NCBI GenBank assembly: GCA_049521375.1 | Contig: JBEKOW010000001.1 | Location: 2,850 to 66,849 of the forward strand | Direction of reading: 5' to 3' | From: Terriglobales bacterium | GTDB taxonomy: Bacteria > Acidobacteriota > Terriglobia > Terriglobales > Acidobacteriaceae | DNA: 64,000 bases | Shown: piece after piece, positions 46,597-62,870 of the stretch | Position numbering within the stretch: position 1 is the stretch's first letter | How the letters are laid out: each line of letters opens with the position of its first letter | Made by a program: the position numbers and the translations under genes | The notes under the pieces: model-generated | Told to the model about the DNA's origin: nothing | The model's database searches: none | The model's input: the letters and a program-made list of their open reading frames with translations, nothing else

Positions 46597-46622
46597 CGGA
46601 ACTTTTGTTGGCGGGAAATTAC

Positions 46623-46657: not shown

Positions 46658-46684
46658 CAGGAATACCCGACCTTCGAAAATCGC

Positions 46685-47954: not shown

Positions 47955-47960
47955 ACGTGA

Positions 47961-47984
47961 CCGGCCCAGTGGGGGCCGGATTTC
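47961..47984 (+). terminator. rpsO-pnp intergenic hairpin (attenuator/processing site)
   Basis: CCGGCCCagtgGGGGCCGG is followed by ATTT, in the position where rpsO terminators and RNase III sites lie in other bacteria. Confidence 0.5.
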
Positions 47985-48108
47985 AACTCCGAGAGCCTTA
48001 ACAACGTGCGTTTTCCCGACCGCGAGCCGCACTGGCATTCGCCTTTTGCCTATCCAGGCGAACTCCGCATTGGCGCGCCCGCGCTCCTGCCAAAATAAAG
48101 GATGACTT

Positions 48109-50559
48109 ATGAAGCCTGAACCTACCGTAGTTACCGTCGAAATCGCTGGCGGCAAAACCCTCTCCTTCGAAACCGGAAAGCTCGCCAAGCAGGCCCATGG
48201 TTCCGCCCTCGTGCGCCTCGGCGAGAACGTTGTGCTTGCGACCGCTGTCGCCAATCCCGAGCCGCGCACCGGCATCGACTTTTTCCCGCTCACCGTCGAC
48301 TACCGCGAATACACCTATGCCGGCGGACGTATTCCCGGTGGATTCATCAAGCGCGAAGGCCGCATGAGCGAGCGCGAAGTGCTCACGAGCCGCCAGATTG
48401 ACCGTCCCATCCGCCCCATGTTCGCCGAAGGTTTCAAATGCGAGACGCAGGTCATCGCCTTCGTGCTCTCCGCCGACACCGAAAACGATCCCGATGTAGT
48501 CGGCATCAACGCCGCTTCCGCCGCGCTGACAGTTTCTGACATTCCATTCCTCGGCCCCATCGGCGCCGTGCGCGTCGGCCTGGTGGAGGGCCGCTTCATC
48601 GCCAATCCCACCTATAGCGAGATGCGCGAAGGCCTGCTGAACATCATGGTTGTCGGCACCTCCGAAGCCATCCTGATGATCGAATCCGGCGCCAAGGAAG
48701 TAAAAGAAGAAACAGTAGTCGATGCGATTGAATTCGCGCACACCGAAATTAAAAAGATTTGCGCCGCCATCGAAGAGCTGCGCCGCAAGGTCGGCAAGCC
48801 CAAGCGTAAGGTAACGCCTCCCGAATTCGACAACGCCTACTATAAAGAGTTGGAGTCGAAAATCGGCGCGCGCCTGTCCGACGCTCTCGACACCCAGAAG
48901 CATCCGAAATCCGAAAGCTACGAACTCGTCCGAACTCTGGAAAAAGAACAACTGGCCGCCATCCCGGAAGAAGACGCTGCGGCCAAAGCGAAATTCAAGG
49001 AATATTACGAGACCCTGCGCGAACGTATCTTCCGCGACCAGGTCATCCACAAAAAGCATCGTCCCGACGGTCGAGCCTTCGATCAGATCAGGGAAATCTG
49101 GATCGAGGTCGGAGTTCTCCCGCGCGCCCACGGCAGCGCCGTATTCACCCGCGGCGAAACCCAGGCGCTGGTCACCACCACCCTCGGCACCAGTGACGAT
49201 ATGCAGCGCCTCGAAGGCTTCGAAGGCGAAGCCAAAAAGCGCTTCATGCTGCACTACAATTTCCCGCCCTTTTCCGTCGGAGAAGTCGCTTTCCTCCGTG
49301 GCGCAGGTCGCCGCGAAATCGGCCATGGCGCTCTCGCCGAGCGCGCCGTTTCATCCGTCCTTCCGACAGAAGACAACTGGCCCTACGCGATGCGCGTAGT
49401 CTCCGACATTCTGGAATCGAACGGCTCCTCGTCGATGGCCACCATCTGCGGTGCGTCGCTCTCGCTGATGGACGCAGGCGTCCCGCTCAAGGCCCCGGTA
49501 GCCGGAGTCGCGATGGGTCTGGTCAAAGAAGGCGACCAGTACGCCATCCTCACCGACATCGCGGGCGCAGAAGATCACTACGGCGACATGGATTTCAAAG
49601 TCGCCGGAACCAAGGAAGGCATCACCGCCCTCCAGATGGATATCAAGGTTGGCGGCATCACCGCCCAGATCATGCGCGAAGCTCTCGCCCAGGCCCAGCG
49701 CGGACGCCTCTTCATCCTCGGCAAGATGGATGAAGTCCTCACCGAACAGCGCGTCAAAGTTTCGGCCTACGCTCCCAGAATCTATACCCTTCAGATCCCG
49801 GTCGATAAGATTCGCGACGTGATTGGGCCAGGCGGCAAGATGATTCGCAGCATCATCGAGCAGACCGGAGTAAAAATCGACGTCGAAGATTCCGGCAAGG
49901 TCAACGTAGCTTCGAACGACGAAGTCTCCGCCAACAAAGCGCTCCAGATTATCCGCGATCTCACTGCCTCCGCCGAAGTAGGGAAGACCTACCTCGGAAA
50001 AGTAAGCCGCCTCGCCGACTTCGGCGCGTTCGTCGAAATTCTTCCCGGCCTCGATGGACTGCTCCACATCAGCGAAGTTGCCGAACACAGAATCAAAGAT
50101 GTCCGTGACGAACTCAAAGAGGGCGACCAGGTCCTGGTAAAAGTCCTGGCCGTCGAAGGCAACCGCATCAAGCTCTCGCGCAAGGCCATCCTGAAAGAGC
50201 AGCGCGCCAAAATGGGTGGCGGCGCTCCTCCCCCTCCGGAAGGTGACATGGCTCCGGAAGGCGACGTCGCTCCCGCAGTCGCGCAGGGCACGCCCACCGC
50301 GGTGATCGAAGGCGGAGCTGATTTTGACGCCGACGACGAGCCGAACTTCAACCGCGTCGATGCCATGGCCGGTTCCGTCGAGCCAGTAGCGGCAGCGCGC
50401 CCCGATGGTGGCCGCGATTCTCGTGGAGGCGGCGGAGGCGATCGCGATCGCAATCGTCGTCGAGGTCGTGGACGCGGCCCAGGAGGCGGCGGTGGTGGTG
50501 GTGGCCGCGGAGGCCATGGTGGTCACAGCGGCGGTGGTGGTGGCAGAGGAAGACGCTAG
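48109..50559 (+). CDS. pnp: Polyribonucleotide nucleotidyltransferase (PNPase) with a ~118-aa Gly/Arg-rich C-terminal extension
   Basis: Two RNase PH domains, a KH domain ('IRDVIGPGGKMIRSI') and an S1 domain ('GKVSRLADFGAFVEI') are present. The tail ends 'RRRGRGRGPGGGGGGGGRGGHGGHSGGGGGRGRR'. Confidence 0.95.
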   Translation: MKPEPTVVTVEIAGGKTLSFETGKLAKQAHGSALVRLGENVVLATAVANPEPRTGIDFFPLTVDYREYTYAGGRIPGGFIKREGRMSEREVLTSRQIDRPIRPMFAEGFKCETQVIAFVLSADTENDPDVVGINAASAALTVSDIPFLGPIGAVRVGLVEGRFIANPTYSEMREGLLNIMVVGTSEAILMIESGAKEVKEETVVDAIEFAHTEIKKICAAIEELRRKVGKPKRKVTPPEFDNAYYKELESKIGARLSDALDTQKHPKSESYELVRTLEKEQLAAIPEEDAAAKAKFKEYYETLRERIFRDQVIHKKHRPDGRAFDQIREIWIEVGVLPRAHGSAVFTRGETQALVTTTLGTSDDMQRLEGFEGEAKKRFMLHYNFPPFSVGEVAFLRGAGRREIGHGALAERAVSSVLPTEDNWPYAMRVVSDILESNGSSSMATICGASLSLMDAGVPLKAPVAGVAMGLVKEGDQYAILTDIAGAEDHYGDMDFKVAGTKEGITALQMDIKVGGITAQIMREALAQAQRGRLFILGKMDEVLTEQRVKVSAYAPRIYTLQIPVDKIRDVIGPGGKMIRSIIEQTGVKIDVEDSGKVNVASNDEVSANKALQIIRDLTASAEVGKTYLGKVSRLADFGAFVEILPGLDGLLHISEVAEHRIKDVRDELKEGDQVLVKVLAVEGNRIKLSRKAILKEQRAKMGGGAPPPPEGDMAPEGDVAPAVAQGTPTAVIEGGADFDADDEPNFNRVDAMAGSVEPVAAARPDGGRDSRGGGGGDRDRNRRRGRGRGPGGGGGGGGRGGHGGHSGGGGGRGRR

Positions 50560-50645: not shown

Positions 50646-51428
50646 TCAGAACGACAGCCGTTTGAAAATCCCTTCCGGAATGTGTTCCACCGCGCTCATC
50701 ACATATCTCCAGATCTTCGGAGCGTAGACCACGTCCGGCGCCCGCCGCTCCAAAGCGCGCACAATGTCGCGTCCCACCACCTCAGGATCGGCAAAGCGCC
50801 CCGCGCCAGCAAGATGGTCGGTCATTGGAGTCTGCACCGGTCCCGGCTTAATAGTAATCACCGCAACGCCGGCGGCATGTAACCGGCTCCGCAGCCCTTG
50901 CAGAAAAAGCGCGAGCGCTCCCTTTGCGGACCCGTAAACGTAGTTCGACCGCCGTCCCCGATCCCCGGCGACCGAAGTAATCGCGGCAATACAGCCCATG
51001 CGACGCCGCTCAAGCTCAGCCGCGAATAGCGTAAGAATCGCCGATGCGCTAACGAAATTAATATTGAGTTCATCTAGCAGAGTCTCGACCGACGCTTCCG
51101 ACTGCTTCTGCTCATGCAACGACCCATAGGCCAGCAGCACCGTGTCGTAATCCGAAAACGATCGTCGGACAAAATCCACAATTGCAGCATGTTGTGGAGT
51201 GGAAGCCAGGTCGGCCTCCCATATCAGCACCTGCTTTGCCCCGCGCGCCAGCAGGTCGGACTGCACCGCCTCCAGTCGCTCAGATGACCGTGCCACCAGC
51301 AGCAACTCGCATCCCCGCCGCGCCAGTTGCCGCTGTACCTCCATCGCAATGCCGGATGTAGCTCCAAGCACAACGACCTTCCTCAAAGCTGCGACCCGAG
51401 AACCCGCCGAGCCCATCGTCATGGTCAT
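50646..51428 (-). CDS. Short-chain dehydrogenase, DprE2-like (polyprenyl-phospho-2-keto-pentofuranose reductase candidate)
   Basis: The SDR motifs 'LGATSGIA' and 'YGSAK' are present in a ~260-aa protein. Its ATG (51426-51428) overlaps the upstream stop as ATGA, and it is third in the operon after the UbiA-like and DprE1-like genes. Confidence 0.65.
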   Translation of the reverse strand: MTMTMGSAGSRVAALRKVVVLGATSGIAMEVQRQLARRGCELLLVARSSERLEAVQSDLLARGAKQVLIWEADLASTPQHAAIVDFVRRSFSDYDTVLLAYGSLHEQKQSEASVETLLDELNINFVSASAILTLFAAELERRRMGCIAAITSVAGDRGRRSNYVYGSAKGALALFLQGLRSRLHAAGVAVITIKPGPVQTPMTDHLAGAGRFADPEVVGRDIVRALERRAPDVVYAPKIWRYVMSAVEHIPEGIFKRLSF

Positions 51429-52795
51429 TGTGGCCCCGTGACGCGCCGCCAGAACGACGACGACATTTTTGGATCGATATAAGGAACGAAACTCCGCCAC
51501 CGCGGGAATGAAGACTCGAACATTGCGCTGCTCATGCGAGCGTCCTTGGCGGGGTAAAGCGCGCCGCCGCTCTGCCACACGACATCATCCAGCGAACGCA
51601 GCAGTTCCAAGGTTCGTTCCCCGCGCATCGCAAAATCAAGCGCCAGAGTCAGCCCGGGACGCGGGAATGACAGCATTCCGGCCGCCGGAGCGGTGCCGAA
51701 TTGCTTGAGCACGCCGAGAAAAGAACCCATCCCCGAGTGCGCGATGCGATCCAGCAGCTCTTCGAGCGCCGCGAGGTTCGCCGACGGCAGCACGCACTGG
51801 TATTGCAGAAACCCCTGCTTGCCGTAAAGCAGGTTCCACTGCCGCAGCGAGTCGAGTGGATAGAAAAACGAATCATAGCCCACCCGCGTCGTGCCTCGCT
51901 TGGCTGCATGCGCGTAATAATAGGCGGTGTTGAATGCCTTCACCGTGCCGCGGTTCAGCACCCACGCGGGCAAAGCAAAGGGAAGTTTCGGACCCAGTTT
52001 CGGACGCAGCTTTCCGCCCGCTTCGGCCGCATGATTTCCGCGGAAAAAAATCCCCCGCGCCTTCTTTCCCGCAAAACAGTCTAACCACGCCACCGTGTAC
52101 TCGAACCGCCCATCGCTCTCGCCGCTGAGATCCAGAAATCCAGCTAGAGATTCAAAGGGGACAAGTTCGCAATCGATCCACGGTCCAGCCACCGGTCGAA
52201 GTTGAATATCGGCCCACGCAATAACGCCCGTCAGCCCAAGCCCGCCAATCGTGGCGCGAAACATCTCTGCATTCTCGCTCGGACTGCAGAACACCGGCCC
52301 TTCGCCCGACCGGTGCAGCCCCAGTTGGCGTACATGAGCCCCGAACGTCCCCGCGCAATGATGATTCTTGCCATGCACATCGTTCGCAATCGCTCCCCCC
52401 ACCGTCACAAACTTCGTGCCCGGAGTCACCGGAACGAACCAGCCCTTGGGAAGAAACACTTCGATGATCTCGGCGAAACTGGCTCCGCTTTCGCACCGCA
52501 GCACGCCCGTCGCTTCGTCAAAGCCAAGTATGCGGTTAAGCCGCCGGCAGTCCACCAGCGCCCGCTGCGCGTTCAGGCACGAGTCGCCATAGCTGCGGCC
52601 CATCCCGTAAGGCAGTAATTCTCCAGCCGACGCGCCTTTGACAATCGCCGGAATCTGATCATCCCACGCCGGTTTGTACACGTGGCTGTGTATGGTCTTC
52701 GGATAGCGTCCCCATGAGAGGTAGCTGCCCGTGCGCATTTCGGCGCGCTCGCCCGCTGCCGGCTCTTTCCGCAACGCTGTGGATTGCGCAGGCAT
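51425..52795 (-). CDS. FAD-dependent oxidase, DprE1-like (polyprenyl-phospho-ribose 2'-oxidase candidate)
   Basis: 456 aa. Blocks align by hand with my recollection of M. tuberculosis DprE1: 'GMGRSYGD', 'VTVGGAIANDVHGKNHH', 'GGLGLTGVI', 'GKQGFLQYQCVLP', 'LSFPRPG..L.LDF' and 'GGALYPAKDAR'. Confidence 0.75.
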   Translation of the reverse strand: MPAQSTALRKEPAAGERAEMRTGSYLSWGRYPKTIHSHVYKPAWDDQIPAIVKGASAGELLPYGMGRSYGDSCLNAQRALVDCRRLNRILGFDEATGVLRCESGASFAEIIEVFLPKGWFVPVTPGTKFVTVGGAIANDVHGKNHHCAGTFGAHVRQLGLHRSGEGPVFCSPSENAEMFRATIGGLGLTGVIAWADIQLRPVAGPWIDCELVPFESLAGFLDLSGESDGRFEYTVAWLDCFAGKKARGIFFRGNHAAEAGGKLRPKLGPKLPFALPAWVLNRGTVKAFNTAYYYAHAAKRGTTRVGYDSFFYPLDSLRQWNLLYGKQGFLQYQCVLPSANLAALEELLDRIAHSGMGSFLGVLKQFGTAPAAGMLSFPRPGLTLALDFAMRGERTLELLRSLDDVVWQSGGALYPAKDARMSSAMFESSFPRWRSFVPYIDPKMSSSFWRRVTGPQ

Positions 52796-52796
52796 A

Positions 52797-54257
52797 TTAA
52801 AAGTTCACGCTTATCATGCTTCCGGCGATCACCGCCGCCGAGGCCAGTGCCGCCCCATAGCTGACCCGGTCGCGAATCGCGAGCGTTACCGGATCCTCAT
52901 TCAACTCGCCGCGATGCGCCTGTAGCCAGGTCCGGCTCAGCCAGTAGAGAACAATCGGGCAAAGCAAAAGCAGCCATTCGGGCGACGGGTAAAGCACCCG
53001 CACTTCCTGGCTATGCACGTACAGACTGAGAATGACCACCGCCGAAAAGCTGCTCCCAACTCCAAGGGCGAGCAGAAGTTCGCGATCTGCCACTCGATAC
53101 CCGCGCCCCGACTTTCCGGACGCGATCAGGTCATTTGCATGGAGCAATTCCGAATAGCGCTTCGCCATTGCGAGGCTGAGAAAGAAAAACATCGCGAACG
53201 CCAGAAACCACTGTGACAGCGGCGTCGCCGAAATCATTGCGCCCGCGAGAATTCGGAAACTGTAAAAGCTGGAGAGCACAAAAACATCAAGCAGCGCAAT
53301 CTTCTTCAAATGGAGCGAGTACCAGGTCGTGAGCGCCGCATATCCCAGCAGCACCAGCCCAAATTGCGCGTCGAGCAGCAGGCCCAACCCGATCGCCGAG
53401 CATAGCAGCCCGAACGCTGCGAACAGGCCCTCGGGAATCGAAATATTCCCCGCCGCAAATGGCCGCTCTTTTTTCCACGGATGCTCGCGATCCGAATGCA
53501 GGTCAAACAGGTCGTTGAGAATATAAAGCCCCGAAGCGCACAGCCCGTAGAGCCCAAACCCCGCCAGCGTGCGGACCACAGGCTCGATCGCCAGATTGTG
53601 CGAAAGCGCCAGCGGCAGAAATAGCAGAAGGTTTTTTGCCCAGTGGTGGCCGCGCAGGGCATCGATCCACGTTCGCAAAGAAGTCCGCGGCTCGGCGATC
53701 CTGGCCTTGAGCGTCGTAACTTCCGCCGCCTGCAATGCGCGCGCCGCGCTTCCAACCACGTACGCTGCCCGGGACTGCCGCCACACCTCCAGGTCGGCGG
53801 TCGAATCTCCAATGTAATCAAAGCCCGTTGAGGCGAAATGCTGCACCAAAAACGCCGCCTTCTCCGCTCCCTTCAGATTCGTTTCGCCGTCGCTGGCGTG
53901 CACTTCGTCGAATAGTCCCAAATGGTCGGAGATCGACCTGGCCAGCTTGTGATCCGCCGCCGTAACCAGCGCAACCCGGCGTCCGGCGAGCCTTTCCTGA
54001 CGCAGAAGATCGACCACTTCCTGACGATACGGAAGGTGCGTGGCATCAAGCTGGATGCGGCCCGCAAGCTGCTTCTTGAGAAACGCGCGTCCCCGAAGCA
54101 GCCAGAACGGCAGCAGAAATAGAACAGCAGGATGCGTTTTGAGCAGGACGAGGATGCACTCCCACAGCAGATTTCCCCGGATCAGTGTGCCGTCGAGGTC
54201 GACGCACAACACCGGCGATGTTTCCTTCGCGGCTTGGGTTCCGGCCACAGACCCCAT
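52797..54257 (-). CDS. Fusion protein: N-terminal HAD-superfamily phosphatase plus C-terminal UbiA-family polyprenyl-phosphate phosphoribosyltransferase-like domain
   Basis: HAD motif I 'CVDLDGTL', 'LVTAA' and 'GDSTADL' lie in the first ~190 aa. A polytopic UbiA domain follows, with 'YILNDLFDLHSDREHPWKKERPFAAG' (NDxxDxxxD, similar to Rv3806c-type enzymes). Its stop lies 1 nt from the next start. Confidence 0.7.
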   Translation of the reverse strand: MGSVAGTQAAKETSPVLCVDLDGTLIRGNLLWECILVLLKTHPAVLFLLPFWLLRGRAFLKKQLAGRIQLDATHLPYRQEVVDLLRQERLAGRRVALVTAADHKLARSISDHLGLFDEVHASDGETNLKGAEKAAFLVQHFASTGFDYIGDSTADLEVWRQSRAAYVVGSAARALQAAEVTTLKARIAEPRTSLRTWIDALRGHHWAKNLLLFLPLALSHNLAIEPVVRTLAGFGLYGLCASGLYILNDLFDLHSDREHPWKKERPFAAGNISIPEGLFAAFGLLCSAIGLGLLLDAQFGLVLLGYAALTTWYSLHLKKIALLDVFVLSSFYSFRILAGAMISATPLSQWFLAFAMFFFLSLAMAKRYSELLHANDLIASGKSGRGYRVADRELLLALGVGSSFSAVVILSLYVHSQEVRVLYPSPEWLLLLCPIVLYWLSRTWLQAHRGELNEDPVTLAIRDRVSYGAALASAAVIAGSMISVNF

Positions 54258-54352
54258 GGGAATATCGTCGCAAACGGCACGGCGAAACGGGCAGACAAGT
54301 CACACACGTAGGTAACCTGGGTAACATGCGCGCAGAGCGGCGGAACGTTAGT

Positions 54353-56386
54353 ATGAGCCAGTCCGCACAGTTGAATCTGCGACCCGCGAGGGAAGCGAAA
54401 GGCGTCTGCCAGGTGGAATCGTTAGCCACAAAAATGGATCGAGAACCCAGCGCCGCCGAGGTGCTCGCCAAGTATCTGCGCCGCCCCAATGTTTTCGTGT
54501 CCCTCCTGGCGTTGACCACATTGGTCGTCTATAGCGGCTCCTTGTCTTTCGATTTTGTCTGGGACGACTGGCCTCAGATCGTCAATAATCCGATCATTCG
54601 CAGCTGGAGCAACCTTCCCCGCGCTTTTGGAAGCGACCTCTGGTACCACATGGCGCGGCATCAGGTGTATTACCGCCCGCTCTTTGTCGTCTGGTCCATG
54701 CTGAACTACGCGCTCTTCGGATTGCGGCCCTGGGGTTGGCATCTGGGCGCGCTGCTGGCGCATGTTGGCGCCGCGCTCTCCGTATTCTGGCTGGCCCGAA
54801 AACTGGGAATCGAATACTGGACATCCGCTCTTGCCGCGCTGATCTTTGCCTTGCACCCCATCCACATCGAGGCCGTCTCCTGGATTTCCGCCGCTTCTGA
54901 CTCGATGGTCACCATGTCGTTCGCGCTCGCCTTTGTCGCCTTCCTCACTGCCCGGAACCCCCGCGGTCACAACAAAGTAGCCTGTTGGATCGCATCGTTA
55001 TTCTTGCTGGCCTGCGCGCTTCTAACGAAAGAGATGGCGGTAAGCTTCGCAGCGCTCGTAGCAATTTATGCCTGGCTGAATCCCGCGGAAGGGAAGATGA
55101 CTCCCACACGCAGAGTTCTATGGGCCATTGCCGAGTCAACGCCCTTTGTCTTGGTTACCCTTGCGTACGTCCTGCTACGTAAACACGCTCTGCCCCACGC
55201 TGCCGGGCAGTTTGATCCCAACCACGGATTGGTTGATCTGGCCCGTACTTTGCCGCTCGTGATCAGCTTCTATCTCTGGAAGCTCCTGGTTCCCGTGGGA
55301 CTAACCGGCCTCTATTACACGCCCTATGTCACCCACGCAATCCTGACTCAACTTATAGCACCCGTCTTATTGCTGCTCGCAGCCCTCGCCGGATTGTGGT
55401 ATTGGAATCGCCGGGAAGGGAACTCGACGGTTGCTTTTGCCGGGCTCTGGCTGCTGGTTGGGCTCGCCCCGGCGCTCTACCTCCGCAATTTCGGCAATGG
55501 CGATTTCGTCAGGGATCGCTATATCTGCCTGCCTTCGGTCGGCTTCGCAATCCTGTTGGCGATGGCGTGCCAGCGCTTGCCATCCATTAAGCAATGGAGT
55601 TCGCAGACGGTCAGAGTCGCCGCCGTTCTTGCGCTGGGTCTTGTCTATGTGGGCGCCTCGCTCTCGCAGCAAGTTTACTGGGCGAACGATCTGCTCCTCT
55701 GGAGCCGGGGTCACGCCCTCTATCCCGACAACCCCTACGCCTCGGTCGGTCTTGCCGCCGAATACAGCAAGCGCGGCGCGCACGACCGCGCGATTGAACT
55801 GGCAGAGTCGGCGGTCCGCCTGCATCCCGATCTGAGCTACGCTCCGCTGGCGCTGGCGGAAACCTACATTCGAGCCGGAAGGTTCGACCAGGGCCGCTTC
55901 TGGCTGCAAAGGGTGCCGCCCGAGTACGTGAAATCGGAGATGGGGACTGCAGCCTTCGCCGGACTCTACGGCCGCATGGGCGACTATGATAAGGCTCTGG
56001 CCTACTGCTCCGAGATTCTGCAGAAGGAGCCCGATCTCTATTCAGCCCTTTATAACTGCGGGAACATTCACCTGATGGATGGCCAATATCGGGAAGCGGA
56101 ACGATTGTTATCGCGTGCGGTCGCACTCGCTCCCGAAGAGGCGGGACCGAAACATTTTCTGGGGCGCACCCTGCTCAAAGAAGGCCGCAATCAGGAAGCC
56201 CAAACTTATCTTCAGCAAGCCGTCGCCCTCGATCCCAAGGTCTGGGATTACCACTATTGGCTGGGCGAGTCGCTCGAAAAAAGTGGAGATCGGGCCACCG
56301 CGCGCGCCGAGTACGAGACCGCTCTGCGCTTGAATCAGGACAGCACCGAAACCAAACTCCGACTGACCGCTCTGGAGGCAAAATGA
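54353..56386 (+). CDS. GT-C-fold membrane glycosyltransferase, TMTC/PMT_2 (DUF1736)-like, with a C-terminal TPR domain
   Basis: The first-loop motif 'SLSFDFVWDDWPQIVNNPIIR' is present, with about 10 TM helices and then TPR repeats ('AIELAESAVRLHPD', 'ALAYCSEILQKEPD', 'AERLLSRAVALAPE', 'AQTYLQQAVALDPK', 'ARAEYETALRLNQD'). The start is uncertain, with alternatives at 54326 and 54434. Confidence 0.7.
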   Translation: MSQSAQLNLRPAREAKGVCQVESLATKMDREPSAAEVLAKYLRRPNVFVSLLALTTLVVYSGSLSFDFVWDDWPQIVNNPIIRSWSNLPRAFGSDLWYHMARHQVYYRPLFVVWSMLNYALFGLRPWGWHLGALLAHVGAALSVFWLARKLGIEYWTSALAALIFALHPIHIEAVSWISAASDSMVTMSFALAFVAFLTARNPRGHNKVACWIASLFLLACALLTKEMAVSFAALVAIYAWLNPAEGKMTPTRRVLWAIAESTPFVLVTLAYVLLRKHALPHAAGQFDPNHGLVDLARTLPLVISFYLWKLLVPVGLTGLYYTPYVTHAILTQLIAPVLLLLAALAGLWYWNRREGNSTVAFAGLWLLVGLAPALYLRNFGNGDFVRDRYICLPSVGFAILLAMACQRLPSIKQWSSQTVRVAAVLALGLVYVGASLSQQVYWANDLLLWSRGHALYPDNPYASVGLAAEYSKRGAHDRAIELAESAVRLHPDLSYAPLALAETYIRAGRFDQGRFWLQRVPPEYVKSEMGTAAFAGLYGRMGDYDKALAYCSEILQKEPDLYSALYNCGNIHLMDGQYREAERLLSRAVALAPEEAGPKHFLGRTLLKEGRNQEAQTYLQQAVALDPKVWDYHYWLGESLEKSGDRATARAEYETALRLNQDSTETKLRLTALEAK

Positions 56387-58338
56387 GCCGCGACATCGAG
56401 AAGCCAGCCGCGACAAGCGAGCCCACGACGACTTCCGGCCGCGAAGTGCTGAAGGTTGAAATAAAAGTTCGCGAGTTGGAATCAACAGAATCGGACGCCG
56501 TCCAGAGTGAAGCTGGCGTCTCTTCGACGAGTCATGACCAAGTTCTTCGTTGGGTAGTCCTCGCCGCGGTTCTGTTGATCGCTGGCACTTACGTCGGCCT
56601 TCGCATCGGCAACGGCTGGGTTCCGGCCGATGATGGAACCCTCGCCCAGAGTGCCCTGCGCGTCCTGCAAGGCCAGCTTCCCCATCGCGACTACGCTGAG
56701 ATCTACACTGGCGGTCTCAGCATGATCCATGCCCTAGCCTTCCGCACCCTGGGCGTGAACCTGATGTCGCTACGAATTTGCGTGTTCCTGTTTTTTCTGG
56801 CCTGGATTCCCGCCGTCTACTACATCGCGCTGCGCTTCACCTCCGCCCTCGGCGCTGGCCTCGTCACGCTCCTCGCGGTCTCCTGGAGCTTCCCGAATTA
56901 TCCCGCCGCCATGCCTTCCTGGTACAACCTGTTCTTCGCCACCTTCGGCGCGGCGGCTCTCCTGCGCTACCTCGAAGTAAGAACCAGAAAGTGGCTGTTA
57001 GTAGCAGGACTGTGCGGCGGACTCTCCCTGGCAATCAAAGTTATCGGAGCCTATTTCATTGCCGGCGCGCTCCTGTTTCTGGCTTTTCTGGAACAAAGCG
57101 ACCACGCGTCGAGCGAGCCCGCGAAAACGAGCTGGGGATATCGCGCCTTCAGCCTGGGCGCCTTGTCCGCCTTCCTCGGGACGCTGCTCTACGTGCTCCA
57201 TGCTCGTCTGACCATGGCAGAGTTCTACCATTTTGTCCTCCCTTCTACGGCCATGGTCTCCCTCATCTTATTCGGCGACCATAAGGTGTCGGCGCCAACC
57301 ACACAACGTTTCGCAGCGCTCCTGCGATTCGTCACTCCATTTGGCCTCGGCGTTCTAACTCCCCTCGCGATGTTGCTGGCGCCCTATGCGCTATCCGGGT
57401 CTCTCCGCAGCTTCGCCTCCGGCATGGCCTCGAGCGTCGCCGGGCACGTCGCGGATCTTGCCGTCATCCGTCCCGCCCCGCTTCAATACGTCGCTTTCGT
57501 GCTGCCGCTCCTGGCCATTCTTGCCGCCGCCATGTATTGGGATAAGTTTCAAGGCAAGGCCGTGGGCGCGGCTTTCGGCGTGGGAGCGATCGTGATCGCC
57601 GTGCGCGCCACGCAGTCGATGCGCATTCTGTCGGGAGTGTGGTTTTCGGCAGTAATGCTGACCCCGGTCGTGGTTTGTCTGGGCGTCGTCGTAGTAGCCG
57701 TGGCCGCCAGAAGCCGTGACCGCAGCCTTCTTCAGCGGCAACAGGTCATGCTGCTAACTTCTCTCGCGGCGACCTGCACCCTCGTCCAGTATCCCTTCGC
57801 CGCTCCCGTATATCTCTGCTATGCGTTGCCGCTGACCCTGCTCGCTCTTGTGTCCATCGTCTCCACCAGCAAGAAGCAGCCCGGAACTTATGTCCTGGTT
57901 TCGGTGGCCGTCCTTTACACGGCGTTCGGAGTCGTCTCGCTCATTCCCATGCAGGTCGCGGAGTTGACGCACGAAGTCGGCCACATGGACAAGTTGCGAC
58001 TACCCCGCGGCGGCGTGCGCATCGAAAACGCTCGCGTCTTCGAGGAACTGAGCCGCTTCCTGCAGCAGCATTCGCCGAACGGTCTGCTTTACGCCGGAAA
58101 CGATTGCCCCGAGGTTTACTTTCTCTCCGGCCTGAAAAACATCACCCGCGACGATGCAGGCGCCAAGCCAGATGAAGTATTGCGCGCCCTCCAATCCACG
58201 GATGTAAAAGTGGTAGTGATCAACGAAGCTCCTTTTTTCCCCGTCGGCCGCATGAACTCGGAAGTAAGAGCCGAGGTGGAGAAAAAGTTCCCCAACCATG
58301 GTCAAGCCGGAATCTTCCAGGTATTTTGGAGAGAGTAA
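56383..58338 (+). CDS. Polytopic membrane protein, possible second GT-C (ArnT/PMT-like) glycosyltransferase
   Basis: The ATG at 56383 overlaps the upstream stop (ATGA) and is preceded by GGAGG. The protein has 12 or more TM helices, an early extracytoplasmic loop 'GWVPADDGTLAQSAL...HRDY', and a soluble ~110-aa C-terminal domain. The family assignment is tentative. Confidence 0.45.
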   Translation: MSRDIEKPAATSEPTTTSGREVLKVEIKVRELESTESDAVQSEAGVSSTSHDQVLRWVVLAAVLLIAGTYVGLRIGNGWVPADDGTLAQSALRVLQGQLPHRDYAEIYTGGLSMIHALAFRTLGVNLMSLRICVFLFFLAWIPAVYYIALRFTSALGAGLVTLLAVSWSFPNYPAAMPSWYNLFFATFGAAALLRYLEVRTRKWLLVAGLCGGLSLAIKVIGAYFIAGALLFLAFLEQSDHASSEPAKTSWGYRAFSLGALSAFLGTLLYVLHARLTMAEFYHFVLPSTAMVSLILFGDHKVSAPTTQRFAALLRFVTPFGLGVLTPLAMLLAPYALSGSLRSFASGMASSVAGHVADLAVIRPAPLQYVAFVLPLLAILAAAMYWDKFQGKAVGAAFGVGAIVIAVRATQSMRILSGVWFSAVMLTPVVVCLGVVVVAVAARSRDRSLLQRQQVMLLTSLAATCTLVQYPFAAPVYLCYALPLTLLALVSIVSTSKKQPGTYVLVSVAVLYTAFGVVSLIPMQVAELTHEVGHMDKLRLPRGGVRIENARVFEELSRFLQQHSPNGLLYAGNDCPEVYFLSGLKNITRDDAGAKPDEVLRALQSTDVKVVVINEAPFFPVGRMNSEVRAEVEKKFPNHGQAGIFQVFWRE

Positions 58339-58578: not shown

Positions 58579-59502
58579 CTAGCTCTTGCGCGCCCACAAG
58601 CGCAGGCACGTGGGCTGCCCGGTGAGGAGCCGAGCGCCAAACTGCAAGGGATGCAATAGCACTCCCGCCGCAAACAACACTGAGTTATACCCGCACCCGA
58701 TCAGGTTTCGCAGCGACCTCCCTATCTTCGGCATTTCGCACCCACCTGAGTGCTCCGGAACCAATCCCGCGTCCAACGCCGCCTGCTTCAATGCGGCTTT
58801 GGAAAAATGAATGGGATGATAAGGAACGTAGTAGCCGTCCCAATATTTGCCGAAAACGTTCCGTAGCGGGGCCTCCAGGTTGGGCACTTCAACCAGCAAA
58901 ACGCCGCCCGGAGACATCAGGTCGCTTATGCCTTTCAGGAAATCCACAGGATGATACGTGTGCTCGAGAACGTGGCGGCAGAGAACAAGGTCAAAGGGAG
59001 TGTGCGCCGTCAGTCCGGCATAGTCCGAGTAATGAATGTCTTCCCCTTCGATCATGGGCGGAGCTGCCTCGTGGTAGTCCGTTGCCCATACCGCGCTTTC
59101 CGGAAACGTCCTCCGCAGGGAAAGCGCGAAAGCCCCGTTGCCGCAGGCGTAATCGAGTATCTTTTTTACCGGCGAGCCAAGCCGCGCGTTGCCCACCATC
59201 GTTCGCACGTCGCGATCCGCAACCGCATCCTTGAGCCTCGCGGCCATCGAAGAGTTATCCCCCTGAAAATCCGAGGATGTCCGGTCTTCATACAATAAGT
59301 GACTGTCTGACTCGGACGGCACCGGATCCGTGATTCCGATCCCGCACCCGCCGCAGCGGTAGACCGAAAACAGTTCTCTCTCGAACGGGCCAGCGCCATA
59401 CGTGACAGCGTCGAGTTCCCATGAGCCGCGGCTGGTCTTGCAGAAAGGACAGTTCTGCAAATGAATCAATTCCGGAAGCGGTCGCCCCGCCGCGGACTCC
59501 AT
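58579..59502 (-). CDS. Class I SAM-dependent methyltransferase with an N-terminal Cys4 zinc ribbon
   Basis: 'CPFC...CGGC' is followed by SAM motif I 'ILDYACGNGAF' and 'DLVLCRHVLEH'. The start was chosen downstream of the GT2 stop and is uncertain. Confidence 0.75.
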   Translation of the reverse strand: MESAAGRPLPELIHLQNCPFCKTSRGSWELDAVTYGAGPFERELFSVYRCGGCGIGITDPVPSESDSHLLYEDRTSSDFQGDNSSMAARLKDAVADRDVRTMVGNARLGSPVKKILDYACGNGAFALSLRRTFPESAVWATDYHEAAPPMIEGEDIHYSDYAGLTAHTPFDLVLCRHVLEHTYHPVDFLKGISDLMSPGGVLLVEVPNLEAPLRNVFGKYWDGYYVPYHPIHFSKAALKQAALDAGLVPEHSGGCEMPKIGRSLRNLIGCGYNSVLFAAGVLLHPLQFGARLLTGQPTCLRLWARKS

Positions 59503-59572
59503 CCTGCGGCGATCAGCGAGTCCGGGTTGTTCAAGTATCTCCACCTGTTCTCTGTCCCCGACGGCCGTTCTC

Positions 59573-60586
59573 TTAGTTGCCGGAAGTCGCGCCCGACGCC
59601 AGTTCGGCCCGTGGCATCGGCGCTCCCATCTCGTGCTCAAAGTTCAGTTTCTCGCGCTCCACCACCAGCGGACGGTTATGCACCTGCGTGTGGATGTTCC
59701 CGATGTATTCGCCCAGTATGCCCATAAACAAAAGTTGCAGCGAGCCTAGAAAAAACATGCCGATGGCAATGGGCGCGATGCCCACCGTAAACTGCCGCCA
59801 GAAAAGCAGCTTGTATCCGAAGTAAACAGTTCCGCCCAGCAGCGATAAGAGTGACCCGGCAAAGCCCGCAAAAGTCACCAGCCGCAGCGGCACCTTCGAG
59901 AGCTTCGTGATCCCCAGCATCGCGAGATCGTACAGCGTGTAAAAGTTGTTCTTGGATTTCCCGCTCTTGCGCCGCTGCTGCTCGTAAACAACCTCGGCGT
60001 GCGGCAGTCCGATCTCCGCGATCATGCCCCGAAAATATGGATAAGGGTCGCCAAACTGGCGGACCAGGTCGATTACCTTGCGATCGTAAAGCCCGAACCC
60101 AGTGAAGTTCTCGTAAGTCTCAATATCGTCGGCCAGGTGGTTCACCAGGCGGTAAAACAGCTTCCGCAGCAGGAACATGGGCGCGGCCTCGCGGCTCGTA
60201 TGCTTGGCCGCAATCACGATCGGAAAGCCTTGTTCCCATTGCTCAATCAACTGCTCCAGCACTTCCGGAGGATCCTGCAAGTCCGACATCAGAACGATAA
60301 TGGCGTCGCCCCTCGCCTGAAACATGGCGTGCATGGGAGACCGGATGTGCCCGAAGTTTCGCGCGTTGCGGATCACCTTCACGTTCGCGTCGTCGGCCGC
60401 AATCTCGCGCAGCACCGCAAAGGTGGAGTCGTGCGACGCGTTATCGATAAAAATATGCTCGTAGCGATAGCGCCCGAGCTTCAGCATCAGGCTGCGCACC
60501 CGCTCATAAACTTCGCGCACGTTGCCTTCTTCGTTGAAGCACGGCGTCACTACGCTGATGGTCTTCACTTCTACAAGACCTTTCAC
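59573..60586 (-). CDS. Family-2 glycosyltransferase, polyprenyl-phosphate sugar transferase type (GtrB/ArnC/DPM1-like)
   Basis: 'ISVVTPCFNEEGN', 'IFIDNASHDST' and 'IIVLMSDLQDPPE' are present, plus two C-terminal TM helices. The GTG start overlaps the upstream stop (GTGA). Confidence 0.85.
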   Translation of the reverse strand: MKGLVEVKTISVVTPCFNEEGNVREVYERVRSLMLKLGRYRYEHIFIDNASHDSTFAVLREIAADDANVKVIRNARNFGHIRSPMHAMFQARGDAIIVLMSDLQDPPEVLEQLIEQWEQGFPIVIAAKHTSREAAPMFLLRKLFYRLVNHLADDIETYENFTGFGLYDRKVIDLVRQFGDPYPYFRGMIAEIGLPHAEVVYEQQRRKSGKSKNNFYTLYDLAMLGITKLSKVPLRLVTFAGFAGSLLSLLGGTVYFGYKLLFWRQFTVGIAPIAIGMFFLGSLQLLFMGILGEYIGNIHTQVHNRPLVVEREKLNFEHEMGAPMPRAELASGATSGN

Positions 60587-61710
60587 TTGCCGCTGCCGGC
60601 CTTCGCCGACAGAACTGCGGGTTGCGGCGGCAGCCCGCGATGGTAGATAAGTTCCGTGAGCGACGGTATGTTGGCGTACGGGCTATCGATGGCGTCAATC
60701 ATGATTGCCTGGTGCGCCGGAACCGCCTTCCGGATCACTTCTCCCCGCATCAACTCCCGGCAGGAAATCTGTCCCTGCTGCAGCGGAATGGCGAGATAGA
60801 CGTCCGCGTCCTGCAGGACGTGCCCCACTGGCAGATCGCGCTTGGCATACACGCCGCGCACCAGCGAGTCCAGGTAGGAAATTTCTTTTTGCGGCGGAAG
60901 CCGCTTCTGCGTCCCCGGAGCCCCGCACATGCGCTTGGCGCGATGGAACGCCTTGAACCACGTGTCGATCTGTTCCGGCACCGAGCAGTAGGGCGAGACC
61001 GTCATCCCTTCCGTCTGAATGTCGACGTGCCGTTCGAACGTTCGCGCTCCCTTGGCATACGCCAACAGCATGGAAGAAGTCCAGTCTTTGTACTCGTGCG
61101 TCGAGAACCCGATTGTGTGTGTCGGGTAGCGGTTACGCAGAAAGTCGATCTGGTTCAGCTCGATGTCGCAATCCTCCGACGGGTAGAGCGACACGCAATG
61201 ATTGATGGCCAGCGGTATATGTCGGTTATCGAAGAATGTTACTAAGTCGTCGATATCTTTGAGGGAAGAGCCTCCCGTCGAAACGATCGCCGGTTTCTTG
61301 GTCTTCGCAATAGTCTCGATCAGGATCCAGTCATTGCAGTCGGAGCTTGCAATTTTCAGAATTGGGATGCCCAGCTTGCAGCAGAAATCGACCGAGCTCT
61401 CGTCAAAAGGCGTGGCCAGCGGGATGCAGCCGGCGTCCCGAATGGCCTGCACCATGGTCACGAAATCCTCAGGCTTCAGGCGCGTGTCGATCGTTTTCTT
61501 GATGTAGCGGATGTCGTCTCGCTGCCGGAAATCCTTGTGAACGAACGTGTCCACGTCGCGGAACTGCAACTTGATGGCCGCGCGAACATTGTTGAAGCGC
61601 ACAACCTGCGCGTAGTTGCTGATGATCTTCAGGCCGCGTTGCAGGTCGCCCAGGTGATTGTTGGCCAGTTCCAGTACAAACAGCTCATCAAATATGTCGT
61701 TGCCAGTCAT
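60583..61710 (-). CDS. NeuB-family PEP-condensing sugar-acid synthase (N-acetylneuraminate-synthase family) with a C-terminal SAF domain
   Basis: 'VLELANNHLGD', 'ATPFDESSVDF', 'LKIASSD', 'AIVSTGG', 'HCVSLYPS', 'IGFSTHE' and 'FERH' line up with NeuB blocks. A SAF-like tail, 'RGVYAKRDLPVGHVL', follows. Confidence 0.75.
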   Translation of the reverse strand: MTGNDIFDELFVLELANNHLGDLQRGLKIISNYAQVVRFNNVRAAIKLQFRDVDTFVHKDFRQRDDIRYIKKTIDTRLKPEDFVTMVQAIRDAGCIPLATPFDESSVDFCCKLGIPILKIASSDCNDWILIETIAKTKKPAIVSTGGSSLKDIDDLVTFFDNRHIPLAINHCVSLYPSEDCDIELNQIDFLRNRYPTHTIGFSTHEYKDWTSSMLLAYAKGARTFERHVDIQTEGMTVSPYCSVPEQIDTWFKAFHRAKRMCGAPGTQKRLPPQKEISYLDSLVRGVYAKRDLPVGHVLQDADVYLAIPLQQGQISCRELMRGEVIRKAVPAHQAIMIDAIDSPYANIPSLTELIYHRGLPPQPAVLSAKAGSGK

Positions 61711-61763
61711 AGTATTAGTCGCCTTGGTACTGTCATCGTCTTGCTGACCTGTCTTTCGCTCGC

Positions 61764-62858: not shown

Positions 62859-62870
62859 CCATTTGCAAAC

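Follow-up and report, generated by a model that had tools for sequence, protein, structure and literature searches.

Pentofuranose glycosylation systems and the acidobacterial locus

Described relatives of the locus considered here are the widespread "three-component" pentofuranose glycosylation systems of Kelly et al. (PNAS 2024; PMC11127046), which use the same HAD-UbiA fusion, biochemically shown to produce polyprenyl-P-Ribf, together with DprE1/E2 homologues for Araf. Wherever the glycan has been solved and DprE1/E2 homologues are found beside a HAD-UbiA or UbiA enzyme, the sugar is always Araf; different auxiliary epimerases lead to different pentoses, and some clusters carry several candidate epimerases (PMC11127046). 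P. aeruginosa homologues, which are similarly diverged, make D-Araf. A further point of reference is TfpW, a pilin arabinosyltransferase of 646 aa. It has 11 TM segments and a TPR domain in the periplasm, and the DDx motif in its loop 1 is essential.

The window, meaning the whole stretch of 64,000 nucleotides of Terriglobales DNA that was analysed, contains three tightly coupled minus-strand genes (the trio), the divergent pair GTC1-GTC2 and a neighbouring GT2 gene:

50646..51428, minus strand: DprE2-like short-chain dehydrogenase/reductase (SDR; PDB, NCBIfam, catalytic triad)
51425..52795, minus strand: DprE1-like FAD-dependent oxidase (PDB, NCBIfam, residues)
52797..54257, minus strand: predicted polyprenyl-phosphate phosphoribosyltransferase, a HAD-UbiA fusion (NCBIfam, Pfam, PDB, residues)
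54258..54412, no strand: divergent intergenic region (conserved block and motif)
54413..56386, plus strand: GTC1, putative GT-C-type glycosyltransferase with a C-terminal TPR domain (segments, WDDW, Pfam, synteny)
56383..58338, plus strand: GTC2, second polytopic protein, with a predicted GT-C fold (Foldseek, D83-D84, synteny)
59573..60586, minus strand: GT2, PgfS/ArnC/GtrB-like (Pfam, NCBIfam), an uncertain member of the system

On the basis of sequence comparison, the locus is probably an acidobacterial extracytoplasmic pentofuranose-glycosylation system, in which the trio would make lipid-linked D-Araf and GTC1 would transfer it. As a probable locus for lipid-carried D-Araf, a sugar donor familiar chiefly from tuberculosis bacteria, in a soil acidobacterium, it joins a known and widespread type of system and is not a new kind. 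The initial annotation regarded the pathway as only sporadic outside Corynebacteriales, which is outdated in view of the systems of Kelly et al. (PMC11127046) and of 98 plasmid records that carry the same module as the trio. Plasmids of Burkholderia and Cereibacter encode HAD-UbiA, FAD oxidase and SDR proteins that are 40-44% identical, together with polytopic proteins labelled 'hypothetical' and a GtrA flippase, and a Sinorhizobium plasmid carries the fusion beside other oxidoreductases and an SMR transporter. In contrast to these proteobacterial clusters with their GtrA or SMR proteins, the acidobacterial locus has no linked flippase; it also differs from the systems of Kelly et al. by a TfpW-like TPR GT-C in place of GT136, by a further GT-C and by an adjoining GT2 of the PgfS/ArnC-like type, a possible source of a rival donor. 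The library of literature that was searched contained no report of D-arabinose in Acidobacteria.

The gene layout is compact. A single base (52796) separates the UbiA stop codon (TAA, 52799-52797) from the oxidase ATG (52795-52793), and ATGA overlaps join the oxidase stop to the SDR start (51428-51425) and the GTC1 stop to the GTC2 start (56383-56386). These junctions agree with the initial annotation, as do all of its open reading frames, its peptide blocks (NDLFDLHSD...KKERPFAAG, GRSYGD, VTVGGAIANDVHGKNHH, GFLQYQ, LYPAKDAR and FVWDD) and its description of a divergent, ATGA-coupled polytopic pair whose first member combines FVWDD with a TPR domain. The mechanical GTC1 frame starts at 54185 and would overlap the divergent UbiA gene; since the orthologues have 655-665 aa and the locus of a 93%-identical relative has a 657-aa call, the true start is probably GTG 54413 or ATG 54434. 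GTC2 starts at ATG 56383 and has 651 aa. The SDR frame can be extended to GTG 51578, and the 260 aa counted from ATG 51428 fit the 258-aa call of relatives.

Conservation across Acidobacteriaceae

The best 80 genome matches all belong to Acidobacteriaceae/Terriglobales, in keeping with the earlier impression of a non-actinobacterial genome. Among 80 species-level genomes the five-gene neighbourhood proved conserved: the oxidase and SDR genes are adjacent in 76/76 and 72/72 cases, GTC1 lies divergently beside the trio in 72/75 genomes, and GTC2 is present and adjacent in 60/70. The locus sits beside rpsO-pnp, with a PNPase neighbour in 54 of 59 genomes, and its proteins are 53-86% identical across the family. 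By these comparisons the locus is core and vertically inherited in Acidobacteriaceae, and its location and protein identities suggest that the glycan product is probably a conserved envelope component and not a variable serotype decoration.

Enzymes of the probable lipid-linked donor pathway

The first protein of the trio contains Pfam HAD and UbiA domains, with the HAD phosphoribose phosphatase at the N-terminus (approximately residues 17-160) followed by the UbiA domain (approximately residues 195-480), and it reaches 585 bits on NCBIfam NF006088 (PRK08238; cut-off 351). The HAD DLDGT motif (D20, D22) and the UbiA motifs N248-D249-x2-D252-x3-D256 and K-R367-Y-S-E370 vary little or not at all across 79-80 species, and the residues equivalent to these catalytic ones have been shown to be necessary in C. 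youngae ORF15 (PMC11127046). The oxidase (Pfam FAD_binding_4), which had been aligned with DprE1 by hand, indeed finds M. tuberculosis DprE1 as its best PDB match (E 4e-67, residues 25-442), whereas cytokinin dehydrogenase, xylitol oxidase and galactonolactone dehydrogenase, the families that follow, reach about E 1e-7 (best 8e-8) or worse, and the NCBIfam DprE1 model gives it 330 bits, versus 34 bits for lactone oxidases. The SDR (Pfam adh_short) is likewise recognized as a DprE2 relative, with M. tuberculosis DprE2 (21gq_C) as its best PDB match at E 1e-31 and the next at 4e-13; on NCBIfam models it obtains 262 bits for PRK07102 (cut-off 267) and 170 bits for DprE2 (cut-off 250).

It is scarcely credible that the UbiA protein is a prenyltransferase for aromatic or other substrates (quinone, heme o, chlorophyll or ebo-type) and that the FAD enzyme and SDR are unrelated redox proteins, with no lipid-linked sugar being made, even though some sources call the orthologues '4-hydroxybenzoate polyprenyltransferase'. 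The UbiA domain scores 108-131 bits on phosphoribosyltransferase models, with the maximum on the NCBIfam decaprenyl-phosphate phosphoribosyltransferase, whereas the UbiA (4-hydroxybenzoate), heme o, chlorophyll and EboC models give it 17-31 bits and an unnamed, generic prenyltransferase model reaches 49 bits. The sole PDB match of the domain is M. tuberculosis Rv3806c (8j8j, E 2e-25), and only the phosphoribosyl route explains why it is fused to a HAD phosphatase and tightly coupled to DprE1/DprE2 homologues. The profile scores and the PDB matches of all three enzymes effectively refute the prenyltransferase reading, and the UbiA domain sides with Rv3806c as had been proposed. Quite improbable, too, is that the oxidase and reductase yield a ribofuranose-derived sugar other than D-Araf, such as a 2-keto or otherwise modified pentose, or act elsewhere. 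Both enzymes lie below the NCBIfam DprE1/DprE2 equivalog cut-offs (500 bits for the oxidase) and are 32-35% identical to the mycobacterial proteins (35% between the oxidase and Mtb DprE1), which counts against the D-Araf reading and would therefore allow a different stereochemical outcome. The equivalents of Mtb Asn385 and Cys387, located near the substrate, are Thr and Ala in 77/77 species; catalysis does not require Cys387, however, and some mycobacteria naturally have Ala or Ser at this position, and the equivalents of H132, K134, Q334, Q336 and K418 (75-79 species) as well as the SDR triad S152, Y165 and K169 (74 species) are invariant. Auxiliary epimerases do vary the pentose, with several candidates in some clusters, and further SDR and FAD enzymes are encoded in the Burkholderia cluster, but DprE1/E2 homologues go with Araf in every solved-glycan system (PMC11127046), and the diverged P. 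aeruginosa homologues point the same way.

Candidate glycosyltransferases

GTC1 has 11 hydrophobic segments, an invariant W-D44-D45-W right after TM1, a weak Pfam PMT match (27.3 bits; gathering score 22.7) and many TPR families, and its architecture is identical to that of TfpW (11 segments, loop-1 DD motif, TPR domain). In the AF2 model (pLDDT 69) the TPR part is confident and the membrane part of low confidence, and the fold search with GTC1 returned TPR proteins only. From architecture and synteny, we infer that GTC1 is the best candidate for the transferase using the lipid-linked pentofuranose, and because of the TPR domain and the identity in architecture to TfpW, a protein acceptor is the leading guess by analogy. 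GTC2 has a conserved D83-D84 right after TM1, a small C-terminal alpha/beta domain and a sub-threshold Pfam PMT_2 match (18.5 bits versus 26.1), which is precomputed for many orthologues. A Foldseek search of the PDB with its model (pLDDT 63, pTM 0.64) returned GT-C enzymes as all top 17 matches, including STT3, PglB and AglB (probability 0.97-1.0, TM ~0.35) and AftA at rank 8 (probability 0.95, TM 0.22), and Pmt4 at rank 22, which suggests a GT-C fold and makes GTC2 a candidate second transferase that would elongate the glycan or use a different donor. No profile similarity was found between GTC1 and GTC2, and neither resembles any solved arabinosyltransferase in sequence, nor the polytopic proteins encoded in the proteobacterial clusters. 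The GT2 protein (Pfam Glycos_transf_2), encoded 1.2 kb beyond GTC2, carries a C-terminal membrane anchor, and its best NCBIfam matches, PgfS at 175 bits and ArnC at 113 bits, both fall short of their cut-offs. One or both GT-Cs may receive a second lipid-linked donor sugar from it; with such an enzyme nearby, the choice of the GT-C that would use the pentofuranose donor is tentative.

GT2s of this type are paired with polytopic GT-C-type proteins in the Pgf and Arn systems. It is conceivable, if rather unlikely, that the donor pathway is real while GT2 provides both GT-Cs, or at the least GTC2, with a polyprenyl-P-hexose or amino sugar, the nucleotide sugar coming from the downstream NeuB-like, dehydratase and RfbH-like genes, and that Araf is used by a GT-C elsewhere. 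A 41%-identical GTC1 paralogue fits such an arrangement: its locus has neither UbiA nor DprE genes, but a related GT2 and two large proteins lacking annotation are encoded close by. So does one locus (L062) in which no GT-C is encoded within 10 kb of the trio. GT2 is found at most 10 kb away in only 39/64 genomes (61-88% identity), however, with variable genes inserted between it and the GT-Cs, whereas GTC1 keeps its nearly constant place beside the trio also where GTC2 is absent and where GT2 is absent. Moreover, a lipid-linked pentofuranose donor requires a GT-C, and GTC1 and GTC2 are the only candidates in the window.

Proposed mechanism

The lipid-linked D-Araf donor pathway is supported by the homology margins, the invariant catalytic residues, the translational coupling and the conserved neighbourhood. 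Of the checks suggested with the initial annotation, every one that was carried out pointed in its favour. On the cytoplasmic face, the UbiA domain would take ribofuranose-5-phosphate from PRPP and attach it to a polyprenyl phosphate, which is probably undecaprenyl-P, and the fused HAD domain would then strip the 5-phosphate, giving polyprenyl-P-beta-D-ribofuranose as the predicted product. The DprE1-like flavoenzyme is predicted to oxidise the 2'-hydroxyl to a 2'-keto intermediate, and the DprE2-like SDR to reduce the ketone from the other face, yielding polyprenyl-P-beta-D-arabinofuranose. A protein encoded outside the window would have to flip the donor to the periplasmic face; the initial annotation called the pathway complete, which holds for cytoplasmic donor synthesis but not for the flippase, as none is encoded within the window. 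GTC1, with its catalytic DD motif placed in the first periplasmic loop and its TPR domain in the periplasm, would transfer D-Araf to the acceptor, and GTC2 might extend the glycan or serve another donor or acceptor.

Divergent intergenic region

In an alignment of 69 loci, a block at 54300-54333 is at least 90% conserved and contains GGTAACctgGGTAAC (54311-54325), which occurs once in the window (expected 0.05). The block is likely the promoter or operator of the UbiA-oxidase-SDR operon and perhaps common to GTC1 control as well, and such an element is compatible with coordinated control. The motif is matched exactly in 32 loci, at a distance of 54-70 nt upstream of the UbiA start in every case; one of these loci (L054) has no GTC1.

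Organization of the locus

All five open reading frames on which the initial annotation had based a donor pathway for D-arabinofuranose (Araf) beside two membrane glycosyltransferases are present in the window.

Genes of the locus
52797-54257, minus strand: HAD-UbiA fusion, 486 aa
51425-52795, minus strand: DprE1-like FAD oxidase, 456 aa
50646-51428, minus strand: DprE2-like SDR, 260 aa
54413-56386, plus strand (probable start): GTC1, a polytopic GT-C-type protein
56383-58338, plus strand: GTC2, a second polytopic GT-C-type protein

The tight packing that had been described was recovered by reading the sequence directly: the TAA stop of the UbiA gene is followed by one base and then by the ATG of the oxidase gene, and the oxidase TGA and SDR ATG share an ATGA at 51428-51425. 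The stop of GTC1 and the start of GTC2 share an ATGA as well (56383-56386, plus strand). GTC1, which is flanked by the HAD-UbiA gene and GTC2, probably starts at GTG 54413 or ATG 54434, because the mechanical reading frame from 54185 runs into the divergent UbiA gene, and because GTC1 orthologues are 655-665 aa long, with a 657-aa call at the locus of a 93%-identical relative. Within the window, the genes upstream of the locus are of the housekeeping kind, and include riboflavin genes, peptidases, a DEAD-box helicase and rpsO-pnp.

A block of the divergent UbiA/GTC1 intergenic region (54300-54333) is at least 90% conserved across 69 Acidobacteriaceae loci, and contains the motif GGTAACctgGGTAAC (54311-54325), a tandem GGTAAC-N3-GGTAAC that occurs once in the window. 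In every case, including that of a genome without GTC1, it stands 54-70 nt ahead of the HAD-UbiA start, and it is probably part of a promoter or operator that serves the three-gene operon. When the locus was scanned for consensus promoters and terminators, no signal exceeded the expectation from shuffled sequence.

Identity of the donor-pathway enzymes

Pfam assigns a HAD (residues 20-157) and a UbiA domain to the fusion, FAD_binding_4 to the oxidase and adh_short to the SDR. Among the NCBIfam models, the fusion scores 585 bits on NF006088 (PRK08238), which spans both domains and has a cut-off of 351, and 108-131 bits on the decaprenyl-phosphate phosphoribosyltransferase models, while its score is 49 bits with a generic prenyltransferase model that carries no name and at most 31 bits with the models named for quinone (4-hydroxybenzoate), heme o, chlorophyll and EboC enzymes. 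Its sole solved relative in the PDB is Rv3806c of M. tuberculosis (8j8j, E 2e-25). A quinone, heme or chlorophyll prenyltransferase, as given in some source annotations and as the initial annotation had weighed against its own reading, is ruled out by these scores and by the Rv3806c match. The oxidase matches the DprE1 structures with an E value of 4e-67 over residues 25-442, nearly its full length, and the next families in the PDB (cytokinin dehydrogenases, xylitol oxidase and galactonolactone dehydrogenase) follow at 8e-8 or worse; the best solved relative of the SDR is DprE2 (1e-31, next 4e-13). DprE1 and DprE2 are thus the nearest families by a wide margin, which speaks against an affiliation with alditol or lactone oxidases, the other outcome that had been set against the pathway.

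Residue conservation, scored over 74-80 species-level orthologues, points in the same direction, and on both of these questions the family scores, together with the conserved catalytic residues, favour the pathway. D20 and D22 of the HAD motif DLDGT do not vary among 79 species, in line with a phosphatase whose nucleophilic Asp is in motif I, and the UbiA motifs NDLFDLHSD (248-256, N-D-x2-D-x3-D) and KRYSE (366-370, with R367/E370) are invariant or nearly so in 79-80 species. In the oxidase, H141, K143, Q331, Q333 and K417 correspond to His132, Lys134, Gln334, Gln336 and Lys418 of M. tuberculosis DprE1 and are invariant in 75-79 species, and the Ser-Tyr-Lys triad of the SDR (S152, Y165, K169) is invariant too. 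The equivalent of DprE1 Asn385 is Thr in 77/77 orthologues, and that of Cys387 is Ala385 in the window and Ala in all 77 orthologues. Cys387 is the covalent target of benzothiazinones and is dispensable for catalysis; the acidobacterial oxidase is therefore predicted to be insensitive to these compounds.

The oxidase stays below the cut-off of the NCBIfam DprE1 equivalog model (NF053785, 330.5 bits versus 500), which is presumably tuned to Actinobacteria, and the oxidases of proteobacterial clusters are equally far from M. tuberculosis DprE1 (36-40% identity). The SDR is likewise under the DprE2 cut-off (170 bits versus 250) and slightly under that of PRK07102 (262 versus 267). Identity to the mycobacterial proteins is 33% for the fusion, 35% for the oxidase and 32% for the SDR, the same range as for the biochemically proven ORF15 of C. 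youngae (31% identical; PMC11127046).

The two GT-C-type proteins

GTC1 is a protein of 650-657 aa with 11 hydrophobic segments, a basic N-terminus ahead of TM1, an invariant W-D-D-W right after TM1 and C-terminal TPR repeats at about residues 440-650 (Pfam). It matches Pfam PMT weakly yet above threshold (27.3 bits, gathering score 22.7). Eleven segments that start from a cytoplasmic N-terminus would place the TPR domain in the periplasm. In the AF2 model (pLDDT 69) the TPR part is confident and parts of the membrane domain are poor; a full-length profile against PDB sequences and a Foldseek search with the model returned TPR proteins alone. Of the representatives of 50%-identity clusters, 54,973 are related to the membrane domain at E <= 0.001, and the ten that were looked up are named, where a name is given, just 'TPR repeat protein' or 'protein O-mannosyl-transferase'.

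In GTC2, about 13 hydrophobic segments are combined with a small alpha/beta domain at the C-terminus, and a D83-D84 pair just after TM1, in the first extracytoplasmic loop, is conserved. In a Foldseek search of the PDB its top 17 matches are all GT-C enzymes (STT3, PglB, AglB and AftA), with probabilities of 0.97-1.0 for STT3, PglB and AglB and 0.95 for AftA (rank 8), and Pmt4 follows at rank 22; the TM scores are low, at about 0.35, the model has a pLDDT of 63, and EmbA/EmbB and AftA are weak fold matches (TM 0.22-0.29). As a polytopic protein with an acidic first-loop motif and a modelled fold similar to these enzymes, GTC2 can be placed in the GT-C fold superfamily.

When the membrane-domain profile of GTC1 and the profile of GTC2 were compared with all PDB sequences, nothing was returned at E <= 10, so that neither protein could be tied by sequence to Emb, Aft, ArnT, PMT or PglB. 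The two proteins are unrelated at profile level and are not paralogues of each other (hhalign probability 0.6%), and by BLASTP neither resembles the 'hypothetical' polytopic proteins encoded in the clusters of Sinorhizobium, Burkholderia and Cereibacter described below.

A hydrophobic-segment scan of every ORF of at least 90 aa found no SMR, GtrA or MATE flippase in the 64-kb window. Five ORFs have at least three hydrophobic segments, namely the UbiA fusion, GTC1, GTC2, an LPG_synthase_TM protein and a CtaA-like protein. The LPG_synthase_TM protein (26690-27778) has seven segments, its domain is of the MprF flippase type and it lies 25 kb from the locus; no link to the missing flippase step was seen.

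Conservation of the locus in Acidobacteriaceae

The view that this genome is not actinobacterial is borne out by the fact that the best 80 loci in a one-genome-per-species collection all belong to Acidobacteriaceae/Terriglobales. The 120 matches listed for the fusion have identities of 75-99%, and all of those with a named organism are from Terriglobales/Acidobacteriia. The five-gene neighbourhood, whose conservation in related genomes had been proposed as a check, is retained when the window proteins are compared with the 80 loci by tblastn.

Neighbours of the HAD-UbiA gene (positive loci/loci with enough flank to be counted)
FAD oxidase, adjacent: 76/76
SDR, adjacent: 72/72
GTC1, adjacent and divergent: 72/75
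GTC2, adjacent: 60/70
Polynucleotide phosphorylase (PNPase), adjacent: 54/59
PgfS/ArnC-like GT2, within 10 kb: 39/64
NeuB-like gene, within 10 kb: 29/64

Across these loci, tblastn identity is 71-84% for the fusion, 56-86% for GTC1, 53-80% for GTC2 and mostly 85-95% for PNPase. In one genome (L062), murA and unrelated genes are found where the GT-C genes would stand. The conserved neighbourhood, together with the housekeeping context upstream, indicates a vertically inherited core locus and no mobile or serotype-variable island.

Which donor serves the GT-C proteins?

A second sugar-modification block lies beyond GTC2, on the minus strand.

58579-63971, minus strand: SAM methyltransferase, GT2, NeuB-like PEP-condensing synthase, NDP-sugar enzyme of the 4,6-dehydratase/epimerase type and RfbH-like enzyme of aminotransferase fold
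59573-60586, minus strand: the GT2 of this block, of polyprenyl-phosphate type, with PgfS and ArnC as best matches, 1.2 kb beyond GTC2

The RfbH-like enzyme scores 643 bits against a cut-off of 423; its ORF is interrupted by the window end, and the equivalent gene call at the locus of the 93%-identical relative is 442 aa long. A further observation comes from a comparison genome (L087, 8001-9998), in which a 41%-identical GTC1 paralogue (P0366) is flanked by two unannotated large proteins, a methyltransferase and a related, 30%-identical GT2, with UbiA and DprE genes absent. The GTC1-type family of GT-C proteins with TPR domains is therefore not generally tied to pentofuranose donors.

With a second donor route so close by and a GTC1 paralogue next to a related GT2, the block could supply another lipid-linked donor, made by the PgfS/ArnC-like GT2, to one or both GT-C proteins. 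However, GTC1 is linked to the three donor genes far more constantly (72/75) than the GT2 is (39/64), and it keeps its place beside them where GTC2 or the GT2 is missing. We lean towards the use of a lipid-linked pentofuranose donor by GTC1.

A proposed pathway

In the proposed pathway, the UbiA domain would move Ribf-5-P (Ribf, ribofuranose) from PRPP onto polyprenyl phosphate and the fused HAD domain would dephosphorylate the product, after which the DprE1-like oxidase and the DprE2-like reductase would invert C2' to give polyprenyl-P-beta-D-Araf. A putative flippase encoded outside the window would bring the donor to the periplasmic face, where GTC1, by means of its periplasmic DD motif, would pass Araf to an acceptor recruited by the TPR domain, and GTC2 may lengthen the glycan or have another role. 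The synthesis and inversion steps are supported by strong homology and conserved catalytic residues, and for transfer by GTC1 and GTC2 the evidence is synteny and architecture, which suggest it. The formation of a lipid-linked ribofuranose is very probable, and its conversion to Araf is likely. That the acceptor is a protein is a tentative proposal, and one that we would sooner doubt than accept. The initial reading, that the organism makes a lipid-linked D-Araf or related pentofuranose donor for periplasmic or surface glycosylation, is supported as far as sequence analysis allows.

A broader reading, which we consider unlikely, is that of a family-wide conserved and possibly essential D-Araf envelope structure, in which GTC1 would prime Ser/Thr of periplasmic or outer-membrane proteins, GTC2 would extend the primer to an oligo-arabinan and flipping would be non-canonical. 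If true, bacteria other than Actinobacteria would have an arabinan, or a system for the general O-arabinosylation of proteins.

Comparison with known systems

In the three-component system of C. youngae O1/O2 (ORF15-ORF14-ORF12, with ORF13 or DprE1/E2-type epimerases), Kelly et al. found that the HAD-UbiA fusion ORF15 turns PRPP into polyprenyl-P-ribofuranose, that a MATE protein is the predicted flippase, that the GT-C enzyme ORF12, which founded GT136, puts the pentofuranose on the O antigen in the periplasm, and that auxiliary epimerases determine which sugar is added, DprE1/E2 homologues being present in every case in which the glycan has Araf (PNAS 2024, PMC11127046). The acidobacterial locus shares the HAD fused to a UbiA-type phosphoribosyltransferase, with the same N-D-x2-D-x3-D and R/E motifs, the DprE1/E2 homologues as predicted auxiliary epimerase and a GT-C protein as the candidate final transferase. 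It differs in that it has no MATE, SMR or GtrA flippase, in its two unrelated GT-Cs and in its place as a core locus beside rpsO-pnp instead of a variable O-antigen cluster; moreover, GTC1 is PMT-like with a TPR domain, whereas GT136, compared here by its description, has a carbohydrate-binding module. The phylum Acidobacteriota is absent from the published examples, and the supplement of Kelly et al. holds no acidobacterial case (PMC11127046).

HAD-UbiA relatives that are 40-46% identical were also found on 98 plasmid records from dozens of genera. In view of these and of the systems of Kelly et al. (PMC11127046), the earlier view that the pathway is sporadic outside Corynebacteriales is outdated. 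In Burkholderia stagnalis and Cereibacter sphaeroides, the genes after HAD-UbiA encode a FAD oxidase and an SDR with 40-43% identity to their counterparts in the window, and these clusters also hold GtrA genes and polytopic hypothetical proteins; proteobacterial HAD-UbiA clusters carry GtrA or SMR genes. Two further plasmid loci have different surroundings.

Sinorhizobium fredii NGR234 pNGR234a, 299625-307690: HAD-UbiA gene on the symbiotic plasmid with an NAD(P) oxidoreductase, a 12-segment hypothetical protein, a GMC oxidoreductase, an SMR transporter and an epimerase/dehydratase
Granulicella tundricola plasmid pACIX904, 18782-20272: second, divergent HAD-UbiA gene, 39-41% identical to that of the window, adjoining a GT8, with a FAD-binding oxidoreductase about 8 kb off

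The former appears to be a pentofuranose variant that uses a different set of epimerising enzymes, and the latter implies that some Acidobacteriaceae hold an extra, mobile copy of the first enzyme. A search of a phage collection with the HAD-UbiA protein gave one weak partial match, which is uninformative.

The closest architectural match of GTC1, compared by description, is TfpW, the pilin D-Araf transferase of P. aeruginosa, a protein of 646 aa that has 11 TM segments, a DDx motif in periplasmic loop 1 that is essential and, at its C-terminus, a TPR domain in the periplasm (bioRxiv 10.1101/2020.04.19.049825), an architecture that GTC1 shares as a whole. The group IV pilin system (TfpW and PsPA7_6246-6249) resembles the present locus in its UbiA/DprE1/DprE2-type route to lipid-linked D-Araf in a Gram-negative bacterium, and neither has a firmly identified flippase. 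However, its phosphoribosyltransferase lacks a fused HAD domain, and tfpW comes immediately after pilA, with no linkage to the donor genes, whereas GTC1 is linked to them; no pilin-family Pfam match was found within 10 kb either side in the gene table of a close relative's locus. The TfpW-like architecture supports, but does not prove, a protein acceptor.

The mycobacterial DPA route proceeds from PRPP through lipid-P-ribose-5-P, lipid-P-ribose and a 2'-keto intermediate to lipid-P-Araf, which is consumed by GT-C enzymes. The predicted chemistry of the acidobacterial locus is the same, and its enzymes are homologous to those of the mycobacterial and corynebacterial pathway (Rv3806c, Rv3807c, DprE1, DprE2 and Rv3789, with Emb and Aft as transferases). 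In contrast to that pathway, the phosphatase is a fused HAD domain in place of the PAP2-type Rv3807c, a C55 lipid is presumably used where that pathway has C50, Cys387 of DprE1 is replaced by Ala, the GT-Cs have no sequence-detectable relation to EmbA/B/C, AftA, AftB or AftD, and a homologue of the GtrA-family Rv3789 is absent nearby.

The eukaryotic TMTC/PMT enzymes and the bacterial PMT-like GT-C proteins with TPR domains share with GTC1 the acidic first-loop motif and the Pfam PMT match, which in GTC1 is weak but above threshold, and in TMTC the TPR domain is on the extracytoplasmic side as well. TMTC/PMT enzymes take dolichyl- or polyprenyl-P-mannose as donor, whereas the genomic partner of GTC1 is a pentofuranose donor pathway. 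To our knowledge, almost none of the bacterial relatives has been characterised.

Significance

Since such pathways are already known to be widespread, the general picture is unchanged; the features that stand out are a core locus in Acidobacteriota, a TfpW-like TPR GT-C linked to the donor genes, a second, unrelated GT-C and no linked flippase. A search of one literature library for D-arabinose, arabinose-containing polymers or DprE1-type genes in Acidobacteria found nothing relevant, and the prediction of a conserved D-Araf glycoconjugate in Acidobacteriaceae is therefore new; it is also easy to test. Acidobacteriaceae rank with the most abundant bacteria of soil and very little is known of their envelope chemistry, and D-Araf is elsewhere characteristic of the cell walls of mycobacteria and of a small number of decorations in Gram-negative bacteria. 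If the prediction is true, Acidobacteriaceae carry a conserved D-arabinofuranose glycoconjugate, which would mark the group chemically and offer lectins, phages and glycoside hydrolases in soil a target, and their diverged DprE1, DprE2 and UbiA set, with a natural Ala at the benzothiazinone site, would be of use for comparative enzymology. The link between a TPR GT-C and donor genes would also open a tractable route to the function of the very large and uncharacterised bacterial family of PMT/TMTC-like GT-C proteins with TPR domains.

Other features of the window

An Rfam scan of the window gave one tRNA and nothing else. The region of about 1 kb between the DEAD-box helicase gene and rpsO (46600-47630) is lower in G+C (0.554 for 46001-48000) and contains short overlapping ORFs alone, with no Rfam match. 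Tblastn to relatives covers only about 94% of the polynucleotide phosphorylase (48109-50559, 816 aa), which leaves unaligned its C-terminal tail of about 100 residues, a stretch that is very rich in Gly and Arg (RGG-like).
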